Source: an uncultured Fibrobacteraceae bacterium (GTDB lineage Bacteria; Krumholzibacteriota; Krumholzibacteriia; LZORAL124-64-63). Taken from it: a DNA stretch of 64,000 bases. The stretch's first letter is position 1. Each line of letters begins with the position of its first letter. The stretch is taken from assembly GCA_964476155.1 (NCBI GenBank), contig CAYYYS010000012.1, positions 6,475 to 70,474 of the forward strand, read 5' to 3'. The notes below the pieces were generated by a model, which worked only from the letters and a program-made list of their open reading frames with translations, did not search any database and was not told where the DNA came from. Below, one piece after another: positions 25,750 through 62,355 of the stretch. A program made the translations under genes and the position numbers.

Positions 25750-25926
25750 CGACCTCTCCTGACGATTCATCCAACCATGCGTCGGAAATTCTAATCACTG
25801 GACGGCCGGGGATCAAGTCGGTCCGACCGAGTGCCGAGTAATATGGATGTCTCAGGGGAGTGGGACCTGTATACTCCGGCCCGGTCGACTAATTCCGAAC
25901 GTCACAAGACAAGGGACAGAACCCAC

Positions 25927-29386: not shown

Positions 29387-29840
29387 CAACCTGGCGGTTT
29401 CCTTGCAAGACCCGATAGCGGAACACACCGTATTGACGCACCCCGACGGCCGCGCCCTCATGACACCCCTGGCCGACGGCCGCTGGCGTTTGGCTATCGA
29501 AACAGATACGCCTTTCGCGTGGCCGCGGCCCGTGGCCTGGGAGACCGGTTACCCGCCAGCCTTGGTCAAGACGCTGATGAATGTGAAAGGCCCACGCCGG
29601 GTCATCGACGAGATCCGCCGCGACGAGGATCCCATCTATGTGGAGAACGACCTCAGGCACGACCTCTTCTCCTTCGTCGCGCCCGAGGACCTGGTCGGCC
29701 GAACAGCGCGCGGCCCGGCGTTTCTCGCGCTACGATCACCGCGGCGACACCTGGCCCGAATTGCTGCGCGCGGGCGTGCGCGGCGGCACCGGTGGCGAGA
29801 CGCTGGCGTTTCGCAAGGAGTCTTAACGAGAGAGTCTAAA

Positions 29841-33647: not shown

Positions 33648-33812
33648 ATTTGGTCACCTTTGCTGCGTTCTGTTCTCGCCAGATCAGAGCTTTTAGTCCA
33701 TTGTGTGCTACTCGATTCCCGTGAGCTACCGCCCTCATTTTGTGCCCAAAACGAATGAGAGACAACCCGGTTCTTTGTGAACGCAACGCGTCTTCGAGAC
33801 GACGGCTTGGAC

Positions 33813-35969
33813 ATGACACACGATCGCCCCACACACAGCGCGCTTGCCGCCGGCCTGTTGTTCGTATGGATGCTGATACCTTGCGTCGTGTTTGGCGTGT
33901 CCAACGGCGAGGTGCCGATCGACTCGTGGATGCTGGAGGGCAAGGGCATCCCCTGTCGCGGTCACGCCAAGGGCCTGGGACCGAACAAGGCCCCCGAAAA
34001 CCATCCGTCCCAGGACCTGATCGATGTCCTGCACTACGCGAATTATTTCATGCTGAATTTCGCCACCCAGGACATCCAGGGCGCACAGCTGATCACCTTC
34101 TCTCCTCTGCAGGGGGCCGTGACCGAGCTGGTCCTGGATTTCGTTGACGAGATGTCTTTTACGTCGGCGGCCCTGAACTCCTCCAATTACGCGCCTCTCC
34201 CTTTCGTTCACGCCAACGACCGCGTGACGATCTCACTGCCCTTTGAGGGCCAGGCCACCACCGATACGATCACGGTCATACTGACCTTCGAGGGCGCGCC
34301 GCAGCCTGACGGAATCTACGGTTTCCGGTTCGTCGAGCGCGAAGACGGTAAACTGGTGGCGGCCAACGTCAGCGAGCCCTGGAGCGCGCGTTCATGGTGG
34401 CCCTGCAAGGACGACCCGCGCGACAAGGCCACGTTCGGCACATCCCTCTATTCGCCCGCCGGCGTGACCGGTGTCTCGAACGGAGTAGAGCTTTCCTCGG
34501 GGCCCGTAAACCCGTACCTGGACGATGACGAGAAAACACGTCTCGAAGATCACCTGGCGGTTCTGCTCGGCGACAAGACCGAGTATGTGGCCGCGTACTG
34601 GCAGGAAACACATCCCATCTCCACGTATCATTTTTCGGTGGCGGCCTCCGAGTACACGCGCCTGGACGACATCTACATCGACGCCCAGGGCGACACGTTG
34701 CAGATCACCAATTACATCTATCCCGATCTGGTCCCCCAGGCCGAGATCGACTTCGCGCCGCTGTCGGACATGCTCGCCTGGTGCGAGGACACGTTCGGGG
34801 CCTACCCCTTCCCTGGCGAGAAATACGGTCATGCCCTCTTCGAGTGGGACGGCGCCATGGAGCATCCCACCGTCGCCACTTATTCGTCCCACTTTGTGAC
34901 CGGCGACAACAATTTCGACTCGATTGTCATGCACGAACTGGCCCATCAGTGGTTCGGCAATCTCGTCACCTGCGCCGACTGGTCCCATACCTGGCTGAAC
35001 GAGGGGTTCGCCACCTACGCCGAAGGTCTCTGGCGCGAGCACTCCGTGGGCGGGAGTTCGCTGAAATGGTTCATGTACCAGCGCAGCATTTTCACCTGGT
35101 GGGGGGGGGCCCTGGTCCGCGACATCCGCAATGACGACCCCTGGTACTTCTTCGCCAACATGGTCTACTACAAGGGTGCCTGGCTGCTGCACATGCTGCG
35201 TCGCGAGATCGGCGACACGGATTTTTTCGAGATTCTCAGACTCTATCCCCACGCGCGCGGCATGTCCTACGGTACCGCGACGACCGACGAATTCGTGCGC
35301 TTCTGCGAGGTATACCTGCGACGCAGCATGTCGACGTTCTTCAACCAGTGGCTCTACCGCGAAACCTATCCCGAACTGAACGTGCAATGGATGAATACCG
35401 GAACCGGGGGCGCTTCGAGCATATGGCTCGACATCAACCAGATCCAGCCCACCGACCCCTATGCCGGTGACGAACCTTTCCTTTTCAAGATCGACGTCCG
35501 CCTGGAAACCGCCGGCGGCAACGTCACCCACGTCGTCGAAGTGGACCGCCGCCACATGTTCGTGACGCTGGACGCACCGGCCAACGTGGACAACGTGGTC
35601 CTCGACCCCGACGGCTGGATGCTCTTCACTGCGGACGTGACCACGGCGGTGGATCCCCTCGCTTCCACCACCCGCGTATTGCGCCTGCGCAAGCCGGAGC
35701 CCAACCCCTTCACCGGACGCGGCATCATCGCCTGGACGACGCCCTTGTCCGGCGGCGACGAGCTGGCCGTCTACGACACGCGCGGCCGGCGCCTGCGCGA
35801 CTGGAAACTCTCCCCCGCCGAACCCGGACAGCGCAGCATCGCCTGGGACGGTCGCGACCGTAACGGTCGTCGCGTGTCGGCGGGCACCTATGTCTACACC
35901 GTCATCTCCCGCCCCACCGACGGCGGCGCGCCCCTGCGCGAAACCGGCAAGATCACACTCGCGCGCTGA
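33813..35969 (+). CDS. Secreted M1 family aminopeptidase (aminopeptidase N-like) with C-terminal T9SS/FlgD-Ig-like sorting domain
   Basis: Signal anchor MTHDRPTHSALAAGLLFVWMLIPCVVFG. GAMEH exopeptidase motif, HEXXH zincin motif VMHELAHQWFGN and the downstream LNEGFATY Glu. CTD ...PEPNPFTGRGIIAWTT...ELAVYDTRGRRLRDW...GTYVYTVISRP...GKITLAR. Confidence 0.9.
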   Translation: MTHDRPTHSALAAGLLFVWMLIPCVVFGVSNGEVPIDSWMLEGKGIPCRGHAKGLGPNKAPENHPSQDLIDVLHYANYFMLNFATQDIQGAQLITFSPLQGAVTELVLDFVDEMSFTSAALNSSNYAPLPFVHANDRVTISLPFEGQATTDTITVILTFEGAPQPDGIYGFRFVEREDGKLVAANVSEPWSARSWWPCKDDPRDKATFGTSLYSPAGVTGVSNGVELSSGPVNPYLDDDEKTRLEDHLAVLLGDKTEYVAAYWQETHPISTYHFSVAASEYTRLDDIYIDAQGDTLQITNYIYPDLVPQAEIDFAPLSDMLAWCEDTFGAYPFPGEKYGHALFEWDGAMEHPTVATYSSHFVTGDNNFDSIVMHELAHQWFGNLVTCADWSHTWLNEGFATYAEGLWREHSVGGSSLKWFMYQRSIFTWWGGALVRDIRNDDPWYFFANMVYYKGAWLLHMLRREIGDTDFFEILRLYPHARGMSYGTATTDEFVRFCEVYLRRSMSTFFNQWLYRETYPELNVQWMNTGTGGASSIWLDINQIQPTDPYAGDEPFLFKIDVRLETAGGNVTHVVEVDRRHMFVTLDAPANVDNVVLDPDGWMLFTADVTTAVDPLASTTRVLRLRKPEPNPFTGRGIIAWTTPLSGGDELAVYDTRGRRLRDWKLSPAEPGQRSIAWDGRDRNGRRVSAGTYVYTVISRPTDGGAPLRETGKITLAR

Positions 35970-41368: not shown

Positions 41369-43396
41369 ATGATCGATCGCACTCGTCGTGTCTTCACAGC
41401 CACGCCGCTCTTTGCCCTGACGCTGCTGGTCGCATCCGCGTCCGCCCAGACCCCGCTGGACATCGGCAACTGGACGCTCGATCAGGAAAATTCGACACAA
41501 AGCTACACGATCCCCGGCGGCACCATCGTGCAACCCGGCGGCTACGTGATCATCTGCCGCGACCAGGACCAGGCGGCCTTCGAGAGCTACTACGGCGTGT
41601 CGTTGGGTTCGAACGTGACCTACCTGCGCTCGAACAACTCGGCGCCCATGATCAATGGCGACGAGACCTACGAACTGCGCAACGCGTCCAGCGGTCTGGT
41701 GGACGGGCCCACCGACGCGATCACGACCACGCGACGCTCGTACCATCGCGCCAATCCCGAGAGCCAGGCCTGGACGGCCACCAACGAGGTCCCGTCCCCC
41801 GGCTCGGGAGTCGAGGCGCCGGACGGCGTGATGTCGGGCCTGGTCATCAGCGAAGTGACCGACCCCGACTCGTATACGTACGAGTTCGTGGAGCTGTACT
41901 ACGACGCGTCCACCGGCAGCGGCAACCAGGTGCCGGTGATCAGCGGCGCCGGCGTCGTGCCGACCGATCCCGTGCAGTACGACGACCTGACCGTCTCGGC
42001 GACGGTGACCGACAGCGACGGCACGGTGACGGCGGTCACCTGCTACTACCGCACCGACGGCGGCACTTTCCTGACCCAGACGATGACCAACACCGGCGGC
42101 GACACCTACGCGACCACGTTCTACAGCCAGCCCGGCAACGTGGACTTCGACTACTACCTGCGCGCCCAGGACGACGAGAGCGGCGTGTCCTACGCCCCGG
42201 CCGGCGCCCCCGCGAGCTACTACACGGTGTGGATCGAGGGCCCGCCCACGGCCGATCGCGTGGTGCTGTTCGACCATTCACACGACCAGGACGCCGGCAG
42301 CAACGGCAACTGGCGCGTCGACAACAACTATCCCGATCCCTACCCCACCGATCCCACGAGCGAGACCGCGTGGAGCGGCCAGCTTTCCGAGTGGGGCTAT
42401 GAGCTCTATCTCGCGGGACATACGGTGCAGAGCAACACGGCGGCCCTGAGCACGTCGGTTCTGTCGGGCGTCGACCTGCTGATCATCCCCGAGCCCCAGA
42501 ACCCGTTCACCGCCGCCGAGAAGGAAGCGGTGCGGCAGTTCGTCTACGACGGCGGCTCGCTGTTCATGGTCGCGGACCACAATTCGAGCGACCGCAACAA
42601 CAATGGCTGGGACAGCCCGAGCATCTTCGGCGGCTACTCCGTACCGCACATCACCGTGCCGGTAGGCGGCGACACCGAGACCTTCGCCGGCGCCCTTTTC
42701 GGCCTGCACTTCCACGTGAAGGACGAGGGCAACAACTCGATTACCGGCACCTTCACCAACATCACCGCCGCCACGGGCAACCCGGTCATCGAGGGCGACT
42801 ACGGCGACGTGAACGCGGTCATCTACCACGTGGGCAACGTCATGACCCTGTGGCCGACCGCCAACCCGTACCTGACCGATGTGGGCTCGTTGATCAGCAA
42901 GGCCGAAGGCTCACCCCACGTGGCGGCCTGGTCACGCTACGGCAGCGGCAAGATCGTGGGTTACGGCGACTCGTCGAGCATGGCCGACGGGACCGGCACC
43001 GAATCCCACGAGGACAACTGGACCGAAGCCGGCAGCAACAACCGGGAATTTTTCCTGAACGCTTGCGTGTGGTTGTTGGATGATCCGGGGACCGGGGTTG
43101 AGGACGAGGTGCCGTATAACCTCGGATTGGGTCTGCGGGTTTATCCGAATCCGTTCAATCCGCGGACGACGGTTTCGTTTGTGATGCCTCGGGATGGGGT
43201 TGTCGAGGTTACGGTGCATGATTTGCAGGGACGGAATTTGCGGACTTTGCATAGCGGATACTTGACGGCCGGGGCGCAAGGGATGACCTGGAGCGGGATG
43301 GACAACGCGGGGCTACCGATGGCCAGCGGCGTCTACCTGGTGCGAGCGACAGGAGTGGGGCTGGTCAATTATACAAAGGTCGTGCTAGCCCGATAG
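41369..43396 (+). CDS. Secreted protein with N-terminal lamin-tail-like domain, central ThuA/GATase1-like region and C-terminal T9SS/FlgD-Ig-like sorting domain
   Basis: RBS GAGGAAG. Signal peptide MIDRTRRVFTATPLFALTLLVASASA. LTD motif GLVISEVTDPDSYTYEFVELYYD. CTD ...YPNPFNPRTTVSFVMPRDGVVEVTVHDLQGRNLRTL...GVYLVRATGVGLVNYTKVVLAR. Confidence 0.8.
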   Translation: MIDRTRRVFTATPLFALTLLVASASAQTPLDIGNWTLDQENSTQSYTIPGGTIVQPGGYVIICRDQDQAAFESYYGVSLGSNVTYLRSNNSAPMINGDETYELRNASSGLVDGPTDAITTTRRSYHRANPESQAWTATNEVPSPGSGVEAPDGVMSGLVISEVTDPDSYTYEFVELYYDASTGSGNQVPVISGAGVVPTDPVQYDDLTVSATVTDSDGTVTAVTCYYRTDGGTFLTQTMTNTGGDTYATTFYSQPGNVDFDYYLRAQDDESGVSYAPAGAPASYYTVWIEGPPTADRVVLFDHSHDQDAGSNGNWRVDNNYPDPYPTDPTSETAWSGQLSEWGYELYLAGHTVQSNTAALSTSVLSGVDLLIIPEPQNPFTAAEKEAVRQFVYDGGSLFMVADHNSSDRNNNGWDSPSIFGGYSVPHITVPVGGDTETFAGALFGLHFHVKDEGNNSITGTFTNITAATGNPVIEGDYGDVNAVIYHVGNVMTLWPTANPYLTDVGSLISKAEGSPHVAAWSRYGSGKIVGYGDSSSMADGTGTESHEDNWTEAGSNNREFFLNACVWLLDDPGTGVEDEVPYNLGLGLRVYPNPFNPRTTVSFVMPRDGVVEVTVHDLQGRNLRTLHSGYLTAGAQGMTWSGMDNAGLPMASGVYLVRATGVGLVNYTKVVLAR

Positions 43397-45502: not shown

Positions 45503-46321
45503 GTGACCGACGATACTCAGGCCGCAACGCCGAACCTCGACAACATCACCTTCGTGCTGAGCCGCACGACCGAGCCCATGAACGTCGGCGCGGCCGCACG
45601 TGCCCTAAAAACAATGGGCCTGTCCAAGCTCACGCTGATCAAGCCGCGCGAGCCGTTCAGCCATCGTTCGCGCGTGGTGGCCCATGGTTCCGAGGACGTG
45701 CTCGACAATGCGCGCGTGGTGCTTGATCACAAGGCGGCCATCCGCGAAATGATCGTCGTGGCCGGTTCGACGGCCCGGCCCCGCGAGCTGCGCAAGGGCG
45801 CCCTGCTCGCGCCCCACGAACTGGCGCGCAAGCTGGTCGATGCGTCCGCCGAGGGACCCGTCGCCATGATGTTCGGCACCGAACGGTCGGGTCTGACCAA
45901 CGAGGAAGTCTACGACTGCCGCTACGTCTCGCGCATCGACGCCAGCGCCGAGCACACCTCCCTGAACCTGGCCCAGGCCGTGATGATCTACGCCTACGAG
46001 ATCCGCAAGGCCTGGCTCGAAACACAGGCCAAGCCGGCGCGGCCCAACAGTCGCCCGCCCGAGATGCGCGTGTCGCATCCGCACCGTTCGACCAAGCTGC
46101 CCGCCCAGGCCGACCTGGACATCATGTACGGCCACGTGGGCGCGGCCATGGACGCGGTCGGTTACGAGCCCGACGAGCGCGACAAGTTCGTCACCTACCT
46201 ACGTCACATGCACATGCGCGCGGGGATCGTGGACTGGGAGATGCAGATCTATCACCTGTTCGCCCGCAAGATCCTGCGCGCCGTCGGCGCCGAGCCTTTC
46301 ATGAGGAGAAACAACAGATGA
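45503..46321 (+). CDS. trmJ: SpoU-class tRNA (cytidine/uridine-2'-O)-methyltransferase TrmJ
   Basis: GTG start. ...ITFVLSRTTEPMNVGAAARALKTMGLSKLTLIKPRE... SPOUT N-terminal motif. C-terminal extension typical of TrmJ. Confidence 0.8.
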   Translation: MTDDTQAATPNLDNITFVLSRTTEPMNVGAAARALKTMGLSKLTLIKPREPFSHRSRVVAHGSEDVLDNARVVLDHKAAIREMIVVAGSTARPRELRKGALLAPHELARKLVDASAEGPVAMMFGTERSGLTNEEVYDCRYVSRIDASAEHTSLNLAQAVMIYAYEIRKAWLETQAKPARPNSRPPEMRVSHPHRSTKLPAQADLDIMYGHVGAAMDAVGYEPDERDKFVTYLRHMHMRAGIVDWEMQIYHLFARKILRAVGAEPFMRRNNR

Positions 46322-47109
46322 CCGCGCGTCGATATCTGCTGCTGATTTTCGCGACCGCCGTGACGAGCGCCCTTGTCTTCGGCCTGATCCGGCGCGACGA
46401 GACACCGGTGCCGCCGGCCGCCGAGACGGCTGCCGCGCCCGTGGATCCCGCCAAGGAGGAAGCCGCGGCGGCGCATATCCTGATCGCCCACGTCGAGAGT
46501 ACCCCGTCCATCGCAGGCGTGACGCGCACCCGCCTGGAAGCCCAGGACCAGGCCCTGCGGGTCGCCGCGGCCCTGCAAAGCAAGCGGGCCCCCTTCGCGG
46601 ACCTGGCCCGTCAGTATTCTGATGATCCCAACGTGGAGATCAACGACGGCTACCTGGGCATCTTCAAGCGCGGGGATCTGCCTCTGCCCCTGGAGGTTCC
46701 CCTCTTCGAGCTGGCCGTGGGACACTTCGACGCGACCGTCGAGACCAGGCGCGGATTTCACCTGCTCATGCGGCAACCCGTGCGACGGGCGGTCGCTCGC
46801 CACATCCTGATCTCCTGGTCGGGCGCCCGCGACGCGACGGCCGGCTTGCGACGCAACCGCGCCCAGGCCGAACTGCTCGTCGACGAAGTGCTGGCCATGT
46901 TCGCCACCGACGAAGTGGATTTCTGCGATCTGTCGTCACGGTTCTCCGACGATCCGGAGAGTCGCTTCGAGTGCGGGTTGCTTGGCGTGATCGAGCCGGC
47001 GGTTCTTCCCCGACCCATGGAAGCGGAGTTGTTCAGTTTGAGGCCGGGTGAAGTATCCGGAAAGATCGAGACGGAGTTTGGCTTCCATATCCTGAAACGA
47101 GACGATTAG
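46318..47109 (+). CDS. Periplasmic parvulin-type peptidyl-prolyl cis-trans isomerase (PpiC/SurA-like, two PPIase domains)
   Basis: ATGA overlap with trmJ. N-terminal TM/signal MTARRYLLLIFATAVTSALVFG. Two PPIase domains ending in GFHLL / GFHIL. Confidence 0.85.
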   Translation: MTARRYLLLIFATAVTSALVFGLIRRDETPVPPAAETAAAPVDPAKEEAAAAHILIAHVESTPSIAGVTRTRLEAQDQALRVAAALQSKRAPFADLARQYSDDPNVEINDGYLGIFKRGDLPLPLEVPLFELAVGHFDATVETRRGFHLLMRQPVRRAVARHILISWSGARDATAGLRRNRAQAELLVDEVLAMFATDEVDFCDLSSRFSDDPESRFECGLLGVIEPAVLPRPMEAELFSLRPGEVSGKIETEFGFHILKRDD

Positions 47110-47227: not shown

Positions 47228-48190
47228 TTACCGGTACAGACTCTTCACATCGCCCCAGGCCTTTTCATCGGTCGGGATGACGATGGTCAGGTACGCAACC
47301 CCACCATCGGAGTCGAACTGGTAGGCGTTGTTGTCCGCCACCATCGGGGCACCGTAGGCCGGGTGGCTCGTGATTGTCAGAGGCGCGTCCGTCATGAGGT
47401 TGTCGAACGTCATCAGGTCCAGGCTGTAGAGCAGACCCACGTTGCCACCGAAGACGGGCAGGTAGGAATACAGACCCATCTCGACGCCGGTGGTCAGCGA
47501 ACCCAGAACCAGGGCGTCGGCGTGCACGGCGTTGCCGAGCATGATCAACGGATCCAGCTCCAGCTTGAAGGCGGCGCCGCCAACCAGCATCTCGGCGTTC
47601 GAGACGAGGATATAGGCCTGGTGGATGACACCGACACCACCGTTGGTAACCAAGGCAGGCTCGGTACCGGCCTCATTGAAGTACACACTGATCTTCGGCG
47701 TACTGTGGATGGTCAGGCACGAGGTCAGACCCTCGGCATCGTACTGGACGCCACCGCTATCGGCGACCTTGGGAGCATCATAGTTGGGATGGGCACCCAC
47801 GGTGATCGTGCCGCCCAGCACGGACGTGGGCGAGTAGAAGTTGAACGTGGCCAGGAGGGCCGTGTCCGTGGGGTCAAAGACCGGAATAAAGCTGTACAGA
47901 CCGACTTCACAGCCGCTCTCGTCGCCGAGATACAGACCCTGATCCGTCATCGGACTCCAGCTGTACATAAGGTCCGGATCGATGTCGACGGAGAACGCGG
48001 CACCACCGACCAGCATGTCGGCGTCCTTAATCATGACATAACCCGTACACATGTCGGGCAAGAGCTCGACGGCGTAGTCGAGGTTGGTGCCGGCTTCGTC
48101 GAAGTAGACACCGATGGTGGGCTGGGCGACCGACAGGCTCGCGAAGGCGAGGACCGCAACGGCCGCGAAGGCACATTTCCAATTCTTCAT
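47228..48190 (-). CDS. Secreted protein with internally duplicated about 150-aa domain and conserved C-terminal ...AWGDVKSLYR tail (paralog family A)
   Basis: Signal peptide MKNWKCAFAAVAVLAFASLSVAQP at an internal ATG (RBS AAGGGA). Repeats start IGVYFDEAGTNLDY... and ISVYFNEAGTEPAL.... The C-terminal motif is shared with 56536..57123 and 59634..60044. Confidence 0.8.
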   Translation of the reverse strand: MKNWKCAFAAVAVLAFASLSVAQPTIGVYFDEAGTNLDYAVELLPDMCTGYVMIKDADMLVGGAAFSVDIDPDLMYSWSPMTDQGLYLGDESGCEVGLYSFIPVFDPTDTALLATFNFYSPTSVLGGTITVGAHPNYDAPKVADSGGVQYDAEGLTSCLTIHSTPKISVYFNEAGTEPALVTNGGVGVIHQAYILVSNAEMLVGGAAFKLELDPLIMLGNAVHADALVLGSLTTGVEMGLYSYLPVFGGNVGLLYSLDLMTFDNLMTDAPLTITSHPAYGAPMVADNNAYQFDSDGGVAYLTIVIPTDEKAWGDVKSLYR

Positions 48191-53195: not shown

Positions 53196-53895
53196 CGACA
53201 TGGAGCAGAGACTGCGGGCCACATCCGTGGATCCCGGCGTTCGACAGGAACACTTCGACGCTTTGCGCGCCGAGCTGCAGTCTCGTATGCGCACACGTCG
53301 ATATCGACCGCTGTTTGTGGCGGCTGCTTCGATTGTCTTCATATGCCTGGTGACGTTCCAGGATCAGCCGCTGGAGAGCTTCAACTATCGGCTCGACTAC
53401 TTCGCGGGCGAGGAAAATTCAATTTATTCGTTCATGTCCCACAGGGATGCGTCAACGTCGTGGGGATTTTCCAAATCTGTCGGAGATCTCGAGGCATATG
53501 AACGAGCGCCTATGACCCCGGAAGAGATCGCCCACCGAATACACAAAACTGAAATCAGCCAGGCCATGTTCGAGGCCGGACTCCTCGAGCCGACAAGAGC
53601 ATATGGGCACACCTGGAAAGGACAAACGACGTATTCTGTAATCTTTACAGGTGAATCCGGAGGGCTCGAATTGCAATACACCTCATATATAGATGATATC
53701 ATCCACCCCGAACATACCGACTTCATGGTCAATCATTATGGCGATATCTACATGGCGGCCTTCCGGGGAGAGCTTTCGCCATACGCTTCACAGGTTATTG
53801 CCCATGATAGCCGCGAGTTCATCCTTCACGGCTGGCGTCACGAGGATCCCGTTTACGGCGAAGTCATTATCTGGACAACCCAAGATTTTAACTAA
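53182..53895 (+). CDS. Putative anti-sigma factor-like membrane protein (single TM, periplasmic domain)
   Basis: Overlaps the sigma stop by 14 nt. TM YRPLFVAAASIVFICLVTF. 170-aa periplasmic region with no recognisable domain. Confidence 0.5.
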   Translation: MRTVSDMEQRLRATSVDPGVRQEHFDALRAELQSRMRTRRYRPLFVAAASIVFICLVTFQDQPLESFNYRLDYFAGEENSIYSFMSHRDASTSWGFSKSVGDLEAYERAPMTPEEIAHRIHKTEISQAMFEAGLLEPTRAYGHTWKGQTTYSVIFTGESGGLELQYTSYIDDIIHPEHTDFMVNHYGDIYMAAFRGELSPYASQVIAHDSREFILHGWRHEDPVYGEVIIWTTQDFN

Positions 53896-55351
53896 CAAAA
53901 GTCGATTTCAGGAAGTCGAGGCTCCGCGGGTTGCGTGCCAGGAGCTCTACGTACATGCGCAGGGTTTCCGCCTGGCCGGTCCGCACCGTGGTGCAAACGG
54001 AATCCACCGCTTCCGGCTTCATTCCCCCCCGCTCCCAAGATTCGGCCAACACCGAGAAACAAGCCGAGCAGAGTCGACACGCCCAGCAATCCAAACAGTG
54101 TTCGCCGAATGATTGCTTGAAGCGACTCCAGAGGACTTCCACAGCCTCCAGGTCGAGACCTTCGCTCACGTGACCGATGATCAGCCCGTCTCCCACCCGC
54201 TCACACGGTTGATAGGCCCCATCGGCACGCACGTGCAGGCGACGTTGGCCGGGCCGGCAGCAACCGCCTGGTGAGATCGCGTCGCCCAGCGTCTCGCGGA
54301 AACGATGATAGAAGGAAACCAGTCCATCGTCGAAAAGAGCAGCCAAAATGGGGCCGGGAGTCCGACCGGCCACACGGGTATCGACATAACGCTGTCGAGC
54401 TGCGAGCAGATCGTCACGAAAACGACCCTTGTCTTCCGTCGTGATGCCGATATCGCCCGGATTGATCCCGGTGAGGTCGACGATGCTGGCGCCAACAGAC
54501 GGCGCCTCTTTGATTCCCGCCTTCCGGTAGGGCGGAAAGTCCGCAAAGTAGGTGTCGACACGCTCAACCTCTGTGGGCGGCGCCAGGGTTACCTGGAAGC
54601 GCAACTGCTCGTGGGCGCGCGATGAAACGGCCAGGAGTCGGCCTATTCCCGCTTCGACTTCGGCATGTGACGGGCCTCCGCCCCGATGAGATCTATGTCG
54701 GTCATGAATGTCCGTGGGGCCGTCAAGACTGATCTGCAGATGGACGCCCTCGGTCACGATGAAAGCGCAGACCTCTTCACTGAGCAGGGTGCCGTTCGTG
54801 TCGATTATGAAGCGGTAGTCGTCGCACGGTCCCTCTCGACGCACCAGATCGACGATCTCGCGGATCAGATCGAACTCGAGAAGAGGTTCACCGCCGTAGA
54901 ACGAGATGGACGGTGTTTCCACATCGCGGCTGCGCGTCAGAAACTCGCGCACGGCCTTGCGTGCCACACTCGGTGACATCCGTTCATCCTGGTGAGATCG
55001 AATCCAGCCCAACTCATGGCCGTGGGGACAATATCCGCACCGCAGGTTGCATTGCTCGCTCACCGAGAGCGTAAGCTGCCCGACCTGGCCGTCGTACCCA
55101 TTCACATCGTGGCAGGCCGGGCATGTGTCGAGGGCCGTTGGTCGGTGAGACAGGAAGAGATTGTGGGCCTCGCGAGCTTCGGCGATTTCACGGTGGGCCG
55201 CCTGCAGGTCTTCGGCCGAAACCCCGGCACCGGCAGGACCGCCAAGCGCGACGGCCATGGCCGAATCGACGGAGATCACATCGCCCGAGTTTACATCATA
55301 GGCATATCGATCTTCATCATGGTCGAAAACGAAGCAAAAAGCGTCTGGCAT
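53888..55351 (-). CDS. Radical SAM / SPASM-domain peptide-modifying enzyme with N-terminal RRE-like extension (putative RiPP maturase)
   Basis: CNLRCGYCPH (CxxxCxxC) about 100 aa from the N-terminus. C-terminal SPASM Cys clusters CCRPG...C...CLDCWACRLCSACFS. Located 12 nt downstream of the Cys-rich precursor ORF. ATG at 55351 (track uses TTG at 55360). Confidence 0.9.
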   Translation of the reverse strand: MPDAFCFVFDHDEDRYAYDVNSGDVISVDSAMAVALGGPAGAGVSAEDLQAAHREIAEAREAHNLFLSHRPTALDTCPACHDVNGYDGQVGQLTLSVSEQCNLRCGYCPHGHELGWIRSHQDERMSPSVARKAVREFLTRSRDVETPSISFYGGEPLLEFDLIREIVDLVRREGPCDDYRFIIDTNGTLLSEEVCAFIVTEGVHLQISLDGPTDIHDRHRSHRGGGPSHAEVEAGIGRLLAVSSRAHEQLRFQVTLAPPTEVERVDTYFADFPPYRKAGIKEAPSVGASIVDLTGINPGDIGITTEDKGRFRDDLLAARQRYVDTRVAGRTPGPILAALFDDGLVSFYHRFRETLGDAISPGGCCRPGQRRLHVRADGAYQPCERVGDGLIIGHVSEGLDLEAVEVLWSRFKQSFGEHCLDCWACRLCSACFSVLAESWERGGMKPEAVDSVCTTVRTGQAETLRMYVELLARNPRSLDFLKSTFVS

Positions 55352-55363
55352 GTCTACCAAGGT

Positions 55364-55561
55364 CTACGTTGGTACGGTGGATTCGAACATCCTGGTATCT
55401 ACTTCATTCCCGGGCGTTCGAGTCGGCGAAGCGGCGGCTTGATCCCCCGTCCTGCAGTTGCAGTTGCATGAGCAGGTGCAGCTGCATGCCATTGCGTTGG
55501 GCTGTTCTTCGGTTGCCGTAGTGGGCTGATGGCCCGGATCCACTTTTTTGTACATAGTCAT
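55364..55561 (-). CDS. Candidate RiPP precursor peptide with alternating Cys core CSCTCSCNCNC
   Basis: MTMYKKVDPGHQPTTATEEQPNAMA-CSCTCSCNCNC-RTGDQAAASPTRTPGNEVDTRMFESTVPT, 65 aa. GGGAG RBS is placed 6 nt before the second ATG (55555). Preceded by an AT-rich promoter region. Confidence 0.6.
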   Translation of the reverse strand: MTMYKKVDPGHQPTTATEEQPNAMACSCTCSCNCNCRTGDQAAASPTRTPGNEVDTRMFESTVPT

Positions 55562-56535: not shown

Positions 56536-57123
56536 TCAATCGCCATAGATGGTTTTTACGTCGCCCCAGGCCCGGGGCTCGTCTTCGGCGGCCGAGTTGA
56601 TGGTGAAGGAGGGGAGGTCGTCGGCGCCACAGGGGCTACAGGGGTGCACCATACCGACATCCGAGGCGTAGCCGGGATTGTCCGGCAGGTCGAGGGAGCC
56701 TGGAACCGGTTTGATGTAGAAACGGATGGAATCTTCGTTGAAGGTCAAGACTGAGATCGAGAGCAGCGGAATCACATTGGCGCTGTTGGGCGTGAGGGGA
56801 CTCAGGGCCGTCCCGACCTGGTATTCGGGGCTCGAAGCGAAGTTGAGAGCGCTCTCGCCCAGAATCTGCCAGGTCGCCGACATGTTCTCCTCGCCCGCGA
56901 CCTCGATATAGGCTTGCCAGCCCAGCGCCTGGGATTGCGAAGGATTGACGACGCACAGATAGATCGTCTGCTGCGTGAAGGCGGCGAGGTCGATATTGCC
57001 GCCACACGTGGACTCGGATTCGTTATCCGCGCAGAAACACATGACGTCGGACTGGGCCACCGCGACGGTGGCGAAGACGAGAACGAACAGGCATGTCGAA
57101 AGCACGCCATATACACGATTCAT
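56536..57123 (-). CDS. Secreted Cys-containing domain protein with C-terminal ...AWGDVKTIYGD tail (paralog family B)
   Basis: Signal peptide MNRVYGVLSTCLFVLVFATVAVA (RBS AAGGGAA). Domain QSDVMCFCADNESESTCGGNIDL... is paralogous to the N-terminus of 57277..59595. Confidence 0.75.
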   Translation of the reverse strand: MNRVYGVLSTCLFVLVFATVAVAQSDVMCFCADNESESTCGGNIDLAAFTQQTIYLCVVNPSQSQALGWQAYIEVAGEENMSATWQILGESALNFASSPEYQVGTALSPLTPNSANVIPLLSISVLTFNEDSIRFYIKPVPGSLDLPDNPGYASDVGMVHPCSPCGADDLPSFTINSAAEDEPRAWGDVKTIYGD

Positions 57124-57276: not shown

Positions 57277-59595
57277 CTACTTCACCAGGGTCAATTTGGC
57301 CATGGTGTCGGTCCGGACACCATCCAACAGGAGTACGGCGAAGTAGGTTCCGCCGGCGAGTTCGCGACCGGTGTCGTCCAGGCCGCGCCAGGTCTCTGTG
57401 TAAGTCCCTGCCGTTTGTGTGCCCAGATCAAATGCGCGCACGCGGCGGCCACGCAGATCGTAGATCTCGAGGCCGAGCCGACCGGGTAGGCTGCTGGTCA
57501 GCTTGATCTCGGTGCTGGGGTTGAAGGGGTTCGGGTGACTGGTGATGGCGTGGGCGACGGGTCGGTCGGGAGCCGCGGTCAACGCGTCCGGGGAGCGGAA
57601 GGTCACCAGTAAGGGTTCATCGCCTACTTCCAGTACGACCGAGGACTCGTCCTGCATGGACATCACGACCACGCGGTTTTGGTGGGGTAGGTAGATCTGG
57701 GGGTCGGTTTTGTCTGGTAGGGCCGTGCTGTCCCAGTTCAAGACGACCGGGCCGGGTTCCGGGGCTGTTAAGGTGGCGGTCCAGTCGTAGGGCTCCTCGA
57801 TGGGGGCGCGGATGTCGGTGAGGAAGGATGAGCCTACGGCGAGGTCCCATTCGGGGTGTTCGAAGCGGAGTTTGGCCGCGCTTCGGGGGACTGGGGACGC
57901 GGGGGGTTCTGGGAGGTCGTAGCGGGCGTCGAAGGATTCCCGGGCTTGGGAGTTGAATCCCAGGGAGACGCCTTCGGAGCGGCCGTCTACAGAAAAGGCC
58001 AGGCGCCAGGCGTCTGGAGAGTCGAAATCGTCTGTCTTGGGGGTTGTGCCTGGGGGGATTACGGTGGCGTAGTTGAACTTGAGCTGGATGTAACTATCGT
58101 GACAGGCCACCCAGTATCCATACCATGTGTCGAATGTCACTGCATCTACATATGACTCCGAGGCTGAATCGTAGCCGAAGGGGAAGGCCGAGACCCAGCC
58201 TGCGCTCACGGCTTCGCCCCAGGTACGTATATCGTATCCGGATCGTGTCACCATAACACCGTCAAGATCCGTCGAAATCCATAACGGATAGCTAACCATG
58301 TTCCAACCGGGGGTCAGCGGAACGTTGACCTCACTGGTATTCAAGGTTCCACCAGGGATATCCCAGGTGTACGCCTGTGTCGCACCAATCCAATAGGCCT
58401 TGAGCAGGTCGGCCGCATCGCCGAGCTCAAGGAGTCTGTATCCGTTGCCGGGATCATGATCGTAAATGAAAGTCGACCACGCCGCGTTTTGCAGAAACGC
58501 CTGGGAGATAGTCCCGGGACTTGGCGGGATCATCGGCAGGCCGGCCAAAGACCAGCCCGCCGGCAGGTCCCGGGACTGGGGCTCCGGCCCGACCATACCA
58601 GGGGGCCCCACCCACAACTCCAGAGTGCGTGGGATGCCGGGAGTCGGCATATAGTTGAAGCTGTAGCCGATCATACGGACATCCACGGTCCAATCGTCGA
58701 CGGGATCATGGAGATACAAGCCCCAGCCATCATCGAACAAGTCATCCGGCGCGAAATCGAGAGTCATTTGCTGGCTGCGATCGGTCAGGACTTCGAAGGA
58801 CCAGACCTTGAGGTTGTCCAATGGATTATAGGGCTCGCGGTAATCGGTCATGAAGCGGTCGCCCAGGGGTGATGCCCATTCGGGATGCGGGAAATAGAGG
58901 GTCACGTATTCGCTTGGCTGTATCGGCGGTTCGGGGGCATCAAAGGGGGGATCATAAATGTCGGTCGCATTGGTGATCGCGCCGGCGATATTGCCGTTGT
59001 CGTCAAGATTGTCGACATGAGCGCTTAGCTCGACGGAGAACTGCGGAAAGGACGGAGGGGGATCTTCGCCGTTGATGGTGAAGACTGGGATGTCGGGATC
59101 GCCGGAGCAGGTTACGCAAGGAATAGAGAAGCCTGCTTCCGGAAAATAGCCCGGGCTGTCAGGGTAAGACGACGAATCCGGTACTCGCCGAACATGGATA
59201 TTGATTGGGGCGGACGTGTCGATCACCGTAAGCGCTATTTGCAACAACACCATACTTCCATCTGCGTTGGGATGCATCGGGCTCGCGCCAAGTCCGACGA
59301 TATAATTGGAGCCATATCCGATATTGAGGCCTCCGCCAAGAACCTCCCAATCACCGAAGTAGGTCACCGTCGTTACGATCTCGACTTGGGCCTCCCAGGC
59401 CGAAACCTGATAAGCACTTGGATTAGTAATGAGCAGATACAGATTCTGCGTGTGGTACATGTCGACATCCACATTTCCGCCACAAGAGGAATAGCTCTCG
59501 CTATCGGTGCATACACACATCACATCCTGCTGGGCAACGGCGACACCGAAAGCCACGAGACTGAACAGGCAAATAGTGGCTACTAGATTTCGCAT
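57277..59595 (-). CDS. Large secreted protein: N-terminal family-B Cys domain, internal repeats, C-terminal T9SS/FlgD-Ig-like sorting domain
   Basis: Signal peptide MRNLVATICLFSLVAFGVAVA. N-terminal domain QQDVMCVCTDSESYSSCGGNVDV.... CTD ...HPNPFNPSTEIKLTSSLPGRLGLEIYDLRGRRVRAF...GTYFAVLLLDGVRTDTMAKLTLVK. Confidence 0.8.
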   Translation of the reverse strand: MRNLVATICLFSLVAFGVAVAQQDVMCVCTDSESYSSCGGNVDVDMYHTQNLYLLITNPSAYQVSAWEAQVEIVTTVTYFGDWEVLGGGLNIGYGSNYIVGLGASPMHPNADGSMVLLQIALTVIDTSAPINIHVRRVPDSSSYPDSPGYFPEAGFSIPCVTCSGDPDIPVFTINGEDPPPSFPQFSVELSAHVDNLDDNGNIAGAITNATDIYDPPFDAPEPPIQPSEYVTLYFPHPEWASPLGDRFMTDYREPYNPLDNLKVWSFEVLTDRSQQMTLDFAPDDLFDDGWGLYLHDPVDDWTVDVRMIGYSFNYMPTPGIPRTLELWVGPPGMVGPEPQSRDLPAGWSLAGLPMIPPSPGTISQAFLQNAAWSTFIYDHDPGNGYRLLELGDAADLLKAYWIGATQAYTWDIPGGTLNTSEVNVPLTPGWNMVSYPLWISTDLDGVMVTRSGYDIRTWGEAVSAGWVSAFPFGYDSASESYVDAVTFDTWYGYWVACHDSYIQLKFNYATVIPPGTTPKTDDFDSPDAWRLAFSVDGRSEGVSLGFNSQARESFDARYDLPEPPASPVPRSAAKLRFEHPEWDLAVGSSFLTDIRAPIEEPYDWTATLTAPEPGPVVLNWDSTALPDKTDPQIYLPHQNRVVVMSMQDESSVVLEVGDEPLLVTFRSPDALTAAPDRPVAHAITSHPNPFNPSTEIKLTSSLPGRLGLEIYDLRGRRVRAFDLGTQTAGTYTETWRGLDDTGRELAGGTYFAVLLLDGVRTDTMAKLTLVK

Positions 59596-59633: not shown

Positions 59634-60210
59634 TTATCTATTCGTATCAAAGAGCGCCTTTACCTCCCCCCAGACCGCATCGTGTGACGCGGTTGGATCG
59701 TCCCAGATCAAGGTCACGATGAGTTCCATATGTGCGGAATCCAGCGGCACGAAAATATCCGCCGGCAAACTGTCTCGCTTGGGCCGCCCTTCGGTCGGAG
59801 TGACGATAACCGCCAGTGGCAGATCCCAGCCCTCCAAGGCCTCGAACGACAGGTAGGCGGTTTGGCCGACCTGATCGGTGTCGATGATCAGCATCCAGTC
59901 CTCGGTCTCGTCTTCCATCTGCAGGGTCGGCCGGAATTCGTCACGCCAGAGGTTGGGAAAGGGTCCCGCGTAACCCGTCATTACAAAATCCAGGCAGAGA
60001 TGGTCTGACGGGGGGGGGCGGTGGTTGGGGCTGATCGTATCCATCGACCAACATCAGGGCGTCGTTGTATACGCCGAAGTGCTGGAGGTCGGAGTCGATG
60101 GCGCCGGTCGTCGCCTGTAGGGAGATGACGATGGATTGGGCGGTGGCGGGCGCGATCAAGCACATCGCGCTCGCGAGCAGGACCGAGACAAAAACTACGA
60201 ATCTATTCAT
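59634..60210 (-). pseudogene. Secreted family member ending in ...AVWGEVKALFDTNR, interrupted by a frameshift at a poly-C/G(9) tract (possible phase-variable gene)
   Basis: ORF 59941..60210 (signal peptide MNRFVVFVSVLLASAMCLIAPATA ... QPQPPPPP) and ORF 59634..60044 are in different frames and overlap at the G9 run 60010..60018 (coding PPP). Confidence 0.5.
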
Positions 60211-60496
60211 GTCGATAATCCGCTTATACGTTTTGGGCGATCCGCGTCTGATTATAGCAGATCTGTGGATTATATGCGTATCGATTTACCTAATAATGGG
60301 GGTGTTTGTACGGGAGGCATTTCTGTGCTTGGTTGGAGGCTTTCGGTGCGCATAAATCATACCCGCGTGCGCCTGTAACTTATAACATAGCATGATGTTA
60401 GCGCTTGCGCTGCTGGTGTTTTTCGGCTATATTGTCTCCATCGAATGCATCCGTTTCGACCTCCCGCGAAACGCTCGTTTTCTGGGAGGTTTTTCT

Positions 60497-61522
60497 ATGT
60501 CAGCCAGCGAAATCCATGCTCGTCTTCAAGCGGCTTTGAGTGAACTTCAGCGGGCGGAGAAGAACGCCGTTCTGTTGTTCGGCGAGATTCTTCGGCGCAA
60601 GTTGTATCGGGATCTTGGTTACTCATCTATTCAGGTTTATGCCGCCGAAGCGCTCGGGTTCTCACCGAGTAAGACTTCGCAGTTTGTGCGACTGGCGGGG
60701 GCGCTCGAAGAGCTGCCGCAGCTGCGTCGATCGGTGGCGGCCGGTGAGTTGGGGTGGACCAAGGCGCGGGAGGTGGCCAAGGTGGCTACGCCCGAAAGTG
60801 AAGAGAGATGGATCGCCGAGGCGGAGCGGTCGAGTAGTCGCAAGTTGGAGCAAACGGTGCGGGCAACACGCAAGCGGGCGCGCCTGGCGCCGCAAGTTGC
60901 GGAGCTGCCTGCGCTGGACCTGGGCGAGCCATCGCCAGCGCTGCCCACGGACGCTCCGCTCTCGGTGAGTACAAAACTCACGGCCGAACAGTACGCCCGC
61001 CACGAGGCTCTGTTCGAGACGATCCGCAAACGAGGCAACCGAAAAAACTCGACAGTACGGGGTATGGACCGCGCCGAGTTGTTGCTCGTCGCGCTGAACG
61101 ATCTGGCGGAGAAGCTCGCGCAAGAGCCGGAAACCAAGATCGTCTCCAGCCCGCCTTATCAAGTCGTAGTTTACACGTGTAAAAAGTGTGGCAAGTCCGA
61201 GGTGCAAACCGACCGCGGTCCAAAGCCCATATCAACTGAAGTTGTGCATTGCGACGCCGTCATCCATGAGCCTAGCCAGCCCAATCGCTCGACCATCCCG
61301 CCGAAAACCCGTCAGGCTGCCATGATCAAGGCCAACCATCGTTGCGAGACACCGGGATGCGGGCGGACACGGTTCCTGGAGGTTCATCATCGGCGTCCGC
61401 GATCGCTGGGGGGCAGCAACGAGGTGACCAACCTCCAGGTGCTATGTTCGAGTTGCCACCAGCTGGTCCATCAACGAGGACAATCGCAACCGGCACAGCA
61501 TCAATATGAGAAAACGGGGTAA
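60497..61522 (+). CDS. HNH endonuclease (DUF222-HNH type)
   Basis: RBS GGGAGG before the internal ATG. C-terminal ...CETPGCGRTRFLEVHHRRPRSLGGSNEVTNLQVLCSSCHQLVH (HNH with Zn Cys). Confidence 0.8.
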   Translation: MSASEIHARLQAALSELQRAEKNAVLLFGEILRRKLYRDLGYSSIQVYAAEALGFSPSKTSQFVRLAGALEELPQLRRSVAAGELGWTKAREVAKVATPESEERWIAEAERSSSRKLEQTVRATRKRARLAPQVAELPALDLGEPSPALPTDAPLSVSTKLTAEQYARHEALFETIRKRGNRKNSTVRGMDRAELLLVALNDLAEKLAQEPETKIVSSPPYQVVVYTCKKCGKSEVQTDRGPKPISTEVVHCDAVIHEPSQPNRSTIPPKTRQAAMIKANHRCETPGCGRTRFLEVHHRRPRSLGGSNEVTNLQVLCSSCHQLVHQRGQSQPAQHQYEKTG

Positions 61523-61587: not shown

Positions 61588-62355
61588 CTAGTCACCGCTC
61601 AATAAATCCCCAAGAATCCCCTTCTTCCCCACCAGGCCGCCCACGCCGCGGTGTTCGCCCTTGTTGCGGCCTACCGCCGTGCTGATGCGGTCGACGAGGC
61701 GGCTGAATGGCAGGGTCTGCAGCCAGACCTTGCCCGGACCGGAGAGCGAAGCCAAGAAGAGGCCTTCGCCGCCGAACAGGGCGTTCTTGAAGCCGCCCAC
61801 GAACTGGATGTCGTAGTCGACCGATTCCTGGAACGCCACCAGGCAGCCCGTGTCGACGCGCAGGGTTTCTCCCGGCGCGAGTTCGCGCTCCATGACGGCG
61901 CCGCCGGCGTGGCAGAAAACCATCCCGTCGCCGGTCAGGCGCTGCAGGATGAAGCCCTCGCCGCCAAATAAACCAGCGCCGAGGCGTTTGGTGAAAGCCA
62001 CGTCTATGTCGAGACCATAGGCGCAACAGAGGAAGGCGTCCTTCTGGCAGAGCATGCGGCCGCCGAGGGCCGACAGATTCATGGGGATGATCTTGCCGGG
62101 GTACGGGGCGGCGAAGGCCACGTGGGCCTTGCCCTGGCCGGTGTGCTTGAAGGTGGTGATGAAGAAGCTCTCGCCGGTGAACACGCGTTTGAGTCCGCCG
62201 AAGATGCCGCCTTCGGCGCCGGTGTTCATCTGCACGCCCGGTTCCATGTAGAGCATGGCGCCGGCTTCGGCCTGCACCGCCTCGTCCGGGTCCAGTTCCA
62301 CGATGACCGCCTGCAGGTCGTCGCCCACCAGTTCGTAATCTATCTCGTGCGCCAT
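61588..62355 (-). CDS. TIGR00266/AIM24 (DUF124) family protein
   Basis: 255 aa. ...GAMLYMEPGVQMNTGAEGGIFGGLKRVFTGESFFITTFK... is characteristic. Confidence 0.8.
   Translation of the reverse strand: MAHEIDYELVGDDLQAVIVELDPDEAVQAEAGAMLYMEPGVQMNTGAEGGIFGGLKRVFTGESFFITTFKHTGQGKAHVAFAAPYPGKIIPMNLSALGGRMLCQKDAFLCCAYGLDIDVAFTKRLGAGLFGGEGFILQRLTGDGMVFCHAGGAVMERELAPGETLRVDTGCLVAFQESVDYDIQFVGGFKNALFGGEGLFLASLSGPGKVWLQTLPFSRLVDRISTAVGRNKGEHRGVGGLVGKKGILGDLLSGD

Follow-up and report, generated by a model that had tools for sequence, protein, structure and literature searches.

A short conserved C-terminal tail on exported proteins of uncultured bacteria: a putative localisation tag alternative to the T9SS-type domain

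Why do three proteins encoded in one stretch of bacterial DNA, otherwise so different in appearance, end in almost the same eight residues? The question is raised by a stretch of 64,000 nucleotides (63% G+C) from an uncultured Fibrobacteraceae bacterium, contig CAYYYS010000012.1, which we analysed over its whole 64 kb and call the window. An earlier note on its sequence had pointed to a motif at the C-termini of three apparently secreted proteins, here proteins 1, 2 and 3. It proposed a second sorting, anchoring or recognition signal, distinct from the C-terminal domain (CTD) of about 80 residues that is typical of the type IX secretion system (T9SS) and is carried by other proteins of the window. 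Here we report that the motif is a conserved, modular and strictly C-terminal tail, mutually exclusive with the T9SS-type CTD in one domain family, and that it may serve as a localisation tag.

The tail and its three carriers in the window

A six-frame scan of the window with the regular expression WG[DE]VK[STA][LI][YF] bears out the shared motif. There are exactly three matches, all on the minus strand, and acidic residues lie upstream of the motif in all three proteins:

47234..47257, minus strand: motif copy 1, …PTDEKAWGDVKSLYR, one residue before the stop
56545..56568, minus strand: motif copy 2, …AEDEPRAWGDVKTIYGD, two residues before the stop
59649..59672, minus strand: motif copy 3, …TASHDAVWGEVKALFDTNR, four residues before the stop

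Relaxing the expression to WG.[VIL]K..[YFW] adds no match in the six frames of the window. Chance is an unlikely origin: against the three matches observed, 1.3e-5 per window are expected for the strict pattern from the six-frame residue frequencies (0.03 for the loose one), and 60 first-order Markov-simulated windows contained none. The three copies use different synonymous codons, which means that conservation and selection act on the peptide, thus ruling out an explanation at the level of DNA or RNA. The carriers and their C-terminal tags are as follows:

47228..48190, minus strand: protein 1, 320 aa; signal peptide MKNWKCAFAAVAVLAFASLSVA followed by QP, two cohesin-like beta-sandwich domains, tail
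47231..47275, minus strand: C-terminal tag of protein 1, PTDEKA-WGDVKSLY-R, acidic linker and core motif
56536..57123, minus strand: protein 2, 195 aa; signal peptide, one Cys-containing beta-sandwich domain, tail
56539..56589, minus strand: C-terminal tag of protein 2, AEDEPRA-WGDVKTIY-GD
59634..60210, minus strand: protein 3 gene, interrupted; an open reading frame (ORF) with the signal peptide, 59941..60210, overlaps the ORF with the tail, 59634..60044
59637..59696, minus strand: C-terminal tag of protein 3, PTASHDAV-WGEVKALF-DTNR
60010..60018, minus strand: C9 homopolymer, site of the protein 3 frameshift

The view that all three are secreted holds for proteins 1 and 2, whose ORFs start with clear signal peptides, but not for the ORF 59634..60044 as it stands, the signal peptide of protein 3 being in the overlapping ORF. 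When one C is deleted from the C9 run (or two are added), the gene becomes a single ORF of 191 aa with signal peptide and tail. The intact orthologues have the same layout at 185 and 192 aa (locus L123, 3404..3961, and locus L125, 1931..2509). In the public database, protein 3 of this organism appears only as a 115-aa 3' fragment, on nine contigs; the frameshift is thus reproducible. Either it is genuine, marking a pseudogene or a phase-variable tract, or the homopolymer causes a systematic error.

An HNH endonuclease/DUF222 gene (60392..61522, plus strand) lies between the protein 3 gene and the AIM24 gene (61588..62355). In the syntenic relatives L123 and L124, the protein 3 orthologue directly follows AIM24 with no such gene between them. 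The HNH/DUF222 gene, with its AT-rich flank at about 60220..60400, therefore looks like an insertion beside the frameshifted gene.

Conservation, position and modularity of the tail

The tail is kept where the rest of the protein diverges. The 55 database homologues of protein 1 occur in one-domain (about 180 aa) and two-domain (about 320 aa) forms; one fragment aside, they all end in [ST]WGxVKxLY plus 0-2 residues, even at 28-31% identity, and W312, K316 and L318 are among only ten invariant columns of the family. For proteins 2 and 3, word-indexed searches gave only seven matches and, for the repaired protein 3, one, so that an exhaustive profile search was needed. All seven retrieved orthologues of protein 2 end in EDExRAWG[DE]VKx[LI][YF]xx, and the two intact protein 3 orthologues in AAWGE[VI]K….

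When the tails are aligned on the Trp, a longer consensus of about 16 residues emerges, [VI]-[AP]-[TN]-[ED]-x-x-[ST]-W-G-x-[VIL]-K-x-L-[YF]; after it come 0-3 further residues (rarely up to eight), frequently R or Q, and there is no hydrophobic stretch. Positions -7 to -1, which lie outside every search pattern, are still conserved, with E/D at -4 and S/T at -1. The Lys is the most invariant position (54/54 and 59/60 in the two aligned sets) and is kept even in variant tails with a changed W or G. The consensus is nearly identical over cargo families and differently labelled phyla.

We then asked how far the tail extends beyond the window. The motif was back-translated to a DNA pattern and scanned against one genome per GTDB species, which gave at least 119 loci; the 119 listed comprise 39 tail-positive and 80 other loci. 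The taxonomic range is thereby sampled, and the labels of the metagenome-assembled genomes (MAGs) are coarse. Among the matches listed, about 45 lie 0-5 residues from the stop of long ORFs, in MAGs labelled Fibrobacteraceae/Fibrobacter, Krumholzibacteriia, Latescibacterota, Eisenbacteria, Zixiibacteriota, Coatesbacteria or simply 'bacterium'. Two more tail cases come from MAGs of Verrucomicrobiia and Thioalkalivibrio, where they lie on short contigs; they are suspected to be mis-binned. The public labels of the lineage itself are inconsistent: L123 (CAZSNA010000023.1), which together with other CAZSNA01 loci comes from a MAG labelled 'uncultured Fibrobacteraceae bacterium', has the gene order of the window and homologues of proteins 1 and 2 that are apparently 60-66% identical, and the other syntenic relatives L004 and L120 are labelled Latescibacterota or Latescibacteria.

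The pattern search in related MAGs suggested by the earlier note separates two situations. The tail-positive loci have 56 C-terminal copies of the motif and two 'internal' ones, of which the first has a nine-residue extension and the second resembles a fusion of tandem paralogues; among all 212 related proteins collected, it is C-terminal 126 times and internal never. In the other 80 listed loci, it is internal in 41 of 42 cases. These internal matches come mostly from one unrelated conserved family of sphingomonads and gammaproteobacteria, WGEVKPLYD.LHCY (L001, L002, L008 and many others), which we take to be an M2/ACE-like peptidyl-dipeptidase. The signal proposal would have suffered had the motif been internal as often as C-terminal, or missing from family members; it is neither. 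Orthologues keep it down to about 30% identity, with W and K invariant.

With a looser regular expression, the listed loci yield 60 tail ORFs, including tandem paralogue arrays with the variant tails WGxIKGIF, WSEVK and WGRLKGLF. One ORF of such an array (L011) is an apparent fusion of two paralogues, in which one tail is left internal. By a crude test, 115 of the 124 tail carriers have an N-terminus that resembles a signal peptide, and some have lipoboxes. The tandem-array carriers of L003 and L011 are lipoproteins in which the lipobox Cys is followed by S/G-D-D-D or S-E-D-D, acidic residues that resemble the surface-export signal of Bacteroidota lipoproteins.

The bodies that carry the tail are diverse. 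After removal of the last 22 residues, the carriers fall into at least 28 BLAST clusters, and Pfam recognises unrelated folds among them, including Beta_helix/NosD (right-handed beta-helix), Trypsin_2 (trypsin-like peptidase) and Laminin_B. NCBIfam identifies choice-of-anchor domains in two carriers, choice_anch_W in L079 (184.7 bits, cutoff 45) and choice_anch_R in L042 (33.2 bits, cutoff 30); the same scan of the three window proteins gives no match to these models. Such domains are named for members that end, depending on the species, in different surface anchors such as LPXTG, PEP-CTERM or the T9SS CTD (bioRxiv 10.1101/2023.03.06.531300). In the choice_anch_W carrier, the match spans the whole domain model, and …GTESSSWGEVKALYR comes immediately after it. 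Considering that the bodies are unrelated and that the choice-of-anchor W model ends right before the tail, the tail is a module rather than the end of one domain.

This also bears on an explanation of the conservation in which the tail would be the best-conserved end of one homologous C-terminal domain common to all carriers. Many carriers are indeed beta-sandwich proteins of about 200 aa, and hhalign aligns families 1 and 2 (those of proteins 1 and 2) with 90.6% probability, over the last 71 columns only, tail included. However, beta-helix, trypsin-like, laminin-B and choice-of-anchor W domains likewise precede the tail, and a 772-aa neighbour has the protein 2 domain without the tail (see below). 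Moreover, confidence in the structural model of protein 1 falls over linker and tail. The shared-domain explanation is thus largely refuted and scarcely tenable.

In that model, made with AlphaFold2 from 32 homologues, two beta-sandwich domains have a predicted local distance difference test (pLDDT) score above 90 and the overall mean is 89. Residues 301-310, with the linker among them, average 72, and residues 311-320, where a short low-confidence helix is modelled at W312-Y319, average 52. This drop indicates that in the model the tail is not packed on the preceding domain. The AlphaFold2 model of protein 2, which has low confidence (pLDDT 64) and was kept out of the fold comparison, is a beta-sandwich with a C-terminal helix at 182-193. 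In the predicted tail helix, S/T-W-G-E at the start reads as a helix capping box.

An alternative C-terminus to the T9SS-type CTD

A link between the tail and an established address comes from the window itself, where at least five proteins have a FlgD_ig-type (T9SS-like) CTD:

21068..23116: RCC1-repeat protein
29403..32273: PLD/DUF5689 protein
33777..35969: M1 peptidase
41369..43396: LTD/GldG-like protein
57277..59595, minus strand: 772-aa protein between proteins 3 and 2; signal peptide, protein 2-like N-terminal domain, protein 3-like modules, FlgD_ig/T9SS-type CTD

A 367-aa protein (24667..25770, minus strand) has a sub-threshold match to the PorV/PorQ family (38.7 bits, cutoff 90), which hints at T9SS-type outer-membrane shuttle proteins in this organism.

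The 772-aa protein matches Pfam FlgD_ig (5.7e-9) and, weakly, Por_Secre_tail, and has no tail. Its N-terminal 175 residues or so are 40% identical to protein 2 over about 170 aa, and the alignment stops where protein 2 goes into its tail and the 772-aa protein into further domains. One of its internal modules resembles protein 3 (E=2e-5). The three carriers are thus less unrelated than they had looked: proteins 2 and 3 each have a counterpart in the same neighbour, and proteins 1 and 2 are both predicted beta-sandwiches, of which only the protein 1 model was compared with solved structures, with a cohesin-like result. By BLAST, the bodies of families 1 and 2 show no similarity.

To follow this split, a profile free of the tail was built from the two domain copies (protein 2 and the 772-aa protein) and searched against 1.84 billion representative proteins, and the best 150 matches were analysed, with homologues of at most 330 aa counted as short and CTD families scored in the last 110 residues. 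Of these matches, 99 are short: 71 have the strict tail, about 11 have a variant tail that keeps the Lys, and the rest are mostly fragments. The other 51 are long and none has the tail; FlgD_ig is found in 46 of them, Por_Secre_tail in 33 and CHU_C in 17. No protein among the 150 has tail and CTD together. The long CTD-anchored proteins sometimes have two or three copies of the domain at the N-terminus, and each of the 20 ORFs with the protein 2 domain in the collected loci is either short and tailed or long and CTD-bearing. Of the 39 tail-positive loci, 9 contain the CTD signature (PNPFN… to the end), which is absent from all 80 others. This division, together with the co-occurrence, marks tail and CTD as alternative C-termini within the same genomes, and the earlier distinction between the two is upheld.

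What the tail may do, and what else it could be

We propose, with about even confidence, that the tail is a modular localisation tag acting after Sec export, read by a conserved envelope factor and used as an alternative to the T9SS CTD. The points that lead to this reading are the strict C-terminal position, the modularity on signal-peptide and choice-of-anchor proteins, the exclusivity with the CTD, the exposed and flexible state in the model, and the near-invariance. The near-invariance over cargo and lineages also favours one conserved reader over fast-evolving partner modules. The comparative evidence thus supports, as a putative role, the sorting, anchoring or recognition signal suspected at the outset.

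The proposed route can be described in five steps. First, the carrier would be exported by Sec, with a signal peptidase I or lipoprotein signal, and its body would fold. Second, the tail would be exposed as a short N-capped amphipathic helix joined by the short acidic linker. Third, a conserved envelope component, probably a protein receptor, would bind the face formed by the invariant Trp, Gly, Lys, Leu and Tyr. Fourth, the bound cargo would reach its final place, whether sent across the outer membrane or retained at the surface. Fifth, the tag would thus act as an address alternative to the CTD of about 80 residues on the paralogues.

The gene neighbourhoods fit such a tag. Housekeeping genes surround the three loci, namely those for SpoU, a PpiC with two parvulin domains, UbiA/UbiX/UbiD, AIM24 and a TehB-like methyltransferase. 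L120, L121 and L128 keep the order UbiX-UbiA-protein 1, followed by the convergent pair PpiC-SpoU, and the PpiC/UbiA synteny is lost in the more distant L126 and L127. No constant non-cargo partner gene emerged across the compared loci; an ORF-based neighbour list was crude and noisy. Carriers scattered among housekeeping genes, with no constant neighbour, are what is usual for the cargo of a general sorting system. The PpiC protein itself (46318..47109, plus strand) is a membrane-anchored double-parvulin of the PpiC/SurA/PrsA-like type, its gene convergent with that of protein 1 (47228..48190, minus strand).

Several points weigh against the tag. The evidence is comparative and has yielded no receptor, peptidase or translocon, and, at 8-16 residues, the tail is much smaller than every outer-membrane translocation signal known. 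In some carriers, which are lipoproteins, S/G-D-D-D at +2 to +4 already resembles a surface-export signal, and a second one would be redundant there. The taxonomic range is sampled from at least 119 loci with coarse MAG labels. Finally, the conserved operon, in which small tail proteins flank a CTD protein with the same domains, suggests co-assembly rather than independent sorting.

This last point leads to the strongest rival, which we consider unlikely but serious: the tail is a docking peptide similar to a dockerin, whose helix attaches, without a covalent bond, to a module on a partner anchored at the surface; the cohesin-like domains of CTD proteins, the 772-aa neighbour among them, would be an example. 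An anchored scaffold would then be the platform on which small subunits and enzymes assemble, or with which they are exported piggy-back. Indeed, a Foldseek comparison of the single domains of protein 1 with the PDB gives cohesins, solved with dockerins, as the best matches (6kgf, 6kge and 5n5p; TMt 0.62-0.67; root mean square deviation about 3.6 A; 11-18% identity), and the model has the nine-stranded jelly-roll beta-sandwich fold of cohesins.

The same kind of domain occurs either in short proteins with the tail or at the N-terminus of long CTD-anchored ones, and enzyme-like cargo (protease, beta-helix) has the tail as well. Moreover, the small(tail)-big(CTD)-small(tail) operon is conserved: the order AIM24, small family 3 protein with tail, big CTD protein or proteins, small family 2 protein with tail, methyltransferase is found in L123, L124 and L125 and partly in L120, and the big protein has the domain types of both small ones. 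However, the tail is almost invariant, yet the putative acceptor domains of families 1 and 2 share no BLAST similarity, and the hhalign match between these families rests on the last 71 columns with the tail in them. AlphaFold2 does not place the tail on protein 1's own domains, and Pfam finds no Cohesin or Dockerin match (for Cohesin, PF00963, none to protein 1 at E<=1). Docking also gives no account of outer-membrane passage for proteins whose only signal is that for signal peptidase I.

A broader version of this idea, which we regard as rather doubtful, is that uncultured phyla of the Fibrobacteres-Chlorobi-Bacteroidetes (FCB) group may have a surface-assembly system to which the tail belongs as docking or acceptor end. 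Tagged subunits and enzymes would be joined to cohesin-like scaffolds with a T9SS CTD, either non-covalently through a mini-dockerin helix or through the Lys by PorU-type transpeptidation. If this were true, a cellulosome-like or pilus-like structure, or piggy-back T9SS export, would be expected.

Covalent attachment as such, with the invariant Lys as nucleophile or acceptor, seems improbable. The tail would be joined to peptidoglycan, or a sortase-like (PorU-type) transpeptidation would join CTD-cleaved cargo to the tail proteins. It would account for a Lys that outlasts changes at W and G, and tail and CTD, mutually exclusive and paired in operons, look like donor and acceptor. The end K-x-L-Y-R-COOH is also loosely like the …K-Y-R-K end of the Braun lipoprotein (Lpp). 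However, the Lys lies 3-6 residues from the C-terminus and is not terminal as in Lpp, and no association with a ligase or L,D-transpeptidase was seen; this reading is pure inference.

An amphipathic anchor at the membrane interface that would hold periplasmic proteins on the membrane, like the C-terminal helix of E. coli PBP5/6, is very improbable and was rejected on partitioning energy. The tail is predicted to be helical and has the interfacial residues W, Y, K and R, but its Wimley-White interfacial sums are 0.06 to 2.39 kcal/mol, against -5.03 for the PBP5 helix. Only 8-10 residues would be available, and position-specific invariance that includes a Gly is atypical of a generic lipid-binding helix.

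The weakest candidate, that the tail is the substrate of the nearby radical S-adenosylmethionine (SAM)/SPASM maturase (53888..55360) with a streptide-like Trp-Lys cross-link, has in its favour W and K invariant at i and i+4 and a maturase in the same conserved neighbourhood, and is next to negligible. Beside the maturase lies a precursor of its own, 65 aa long and with a CxCxCxCxCxC core, which is also conserved in L120. Genes with the tail are dispersed over the genome, some of them in loci that lack such an enzyme, and their products are large Sec substrates. The cassette resembles those that make ribosomally synthesised and post-translationally modified peptides:

53888..55561, minus strand: cassette of maturase and precursor
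55364..55561, minus strand: 65-aa ORF with the core ACSCTCSCNCNC, directly upstream of the maturase
53888..55360, minus strand: maturase, 490 aa, radical SAM/SPASM, CcpM/RumMC/QhpD-like (223 bits, below the equivalog cutoffs)

In L120, where the pair is conserved, the precursor core is SCNCNCICSC.

If the localisation tag is real, it would represent an unrecognised route or attachment mode in lineages with hardly any cultured member; it would have no transmembrane segment and would be exchangeable with the T9SS CTD. A regular expression or hidden Markov model (HMM) of the tag would be a handle to annotate many 'hypothetical' exported proteins, and its distribution a basis for phylogenetic profiling toward its reader. 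A link of small cohesin-fold proteins with T9SS-anchored scaffolds is also possible.

Comparison with known sorting and anchoring systems

As the earlier note had supposed, the tail could not be assigned to a known system. Pfam and NCBIfam, scanned with the three window proteins and 20 other carriers, contain no model that matches it (the three window proteins match nothing at E<=1), and searches of the full-text literature turned up nothing relevant on the motif strings or on C-terminal sorting in these phyla. Within the limits of the libraries searched, the tail appears to be undescribed.

Among its closest counterparts is the T9SS CTD (TIGR04183/PF18962, here in a FlgD_ig-like variant), likewise a modular C-terminal address on Sec-exported proteins of the FCB group. 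Paralogues within the same domain families carry it, it shares genomes and operons with the tail, and the two are mutually exclusive. The T9SS type A CTD folds into an Ig-like beta-sandwich of about 70-100 aa (PMC11285876). At only 8-16 residues, the tail is predicted as one short helix and has no HMM match; the 772-aa neighbour, as a positive control, does match FlgD_ig.

With the tripartite signals (LPXTG/sortase, PEP-CTERM/exosortase and GlyGly-CTERM/rhombosortase), the tail shares a short signature at the extreme C-terminus of many unrelated secreted proteins, also after choice-of-anchor domains. These signals have a hydrophobic transmembrane helix and a basic cluster after the motif, whereas the tail has no hydrophobic segment. 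The dockerin-cohesin pair of cellulosomes resembles it in a C-terminal helical tag on diverse enzymes, with cohesin-fold modules on anchored multi-module proteins and small adaptor proteins. However, a dockerin (PF00404) has about 60-70 aa in two Ca2+-binding loop-helix repeats and is species-specific; the tail has at most 16 aa in a single two-turn helix, is almost invariant over lineages and has no Pfam match.

Lpp, an exported protein of the envelope, is similar in the conserved Lys and the Tyr-Arg close to its C-terminus. Its cross-linked Lys is terminal, whereas the Lys of the tail is followed by x-L-[YF] and 0-3 residues, and the carriers are large globular proteins. The beta-signal of outer-membrane proteins, recognised by BAM, the machinery of beta-barrel assembly, is similarly an aromatic-containing C-terminal motif of exported proteins. 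It is the last strand of a beta-barrel with a terminal aromatic residue; the aromatic residue of the tail is terminal in only 14/54 and 10/60 sequences and mostly followed by R, Q or others, and the bodies are soluble beta-sandwich, beta-helix or protease folds. The favourable interface partitioning of PBP5-type anchors is absent from the tails, and so is the dedicated, coupled maturase of the streptide-like Lys-Trp cross-link.

LPXTG, PEP-CTERM and the T9SS CTD each led to dedicated envelope machinery, and they are now routine in the prediction of surface proteomes. It is among these C-terminal sorting and anchoring tags that the tail probably belongs, as a new variety with a putative function.

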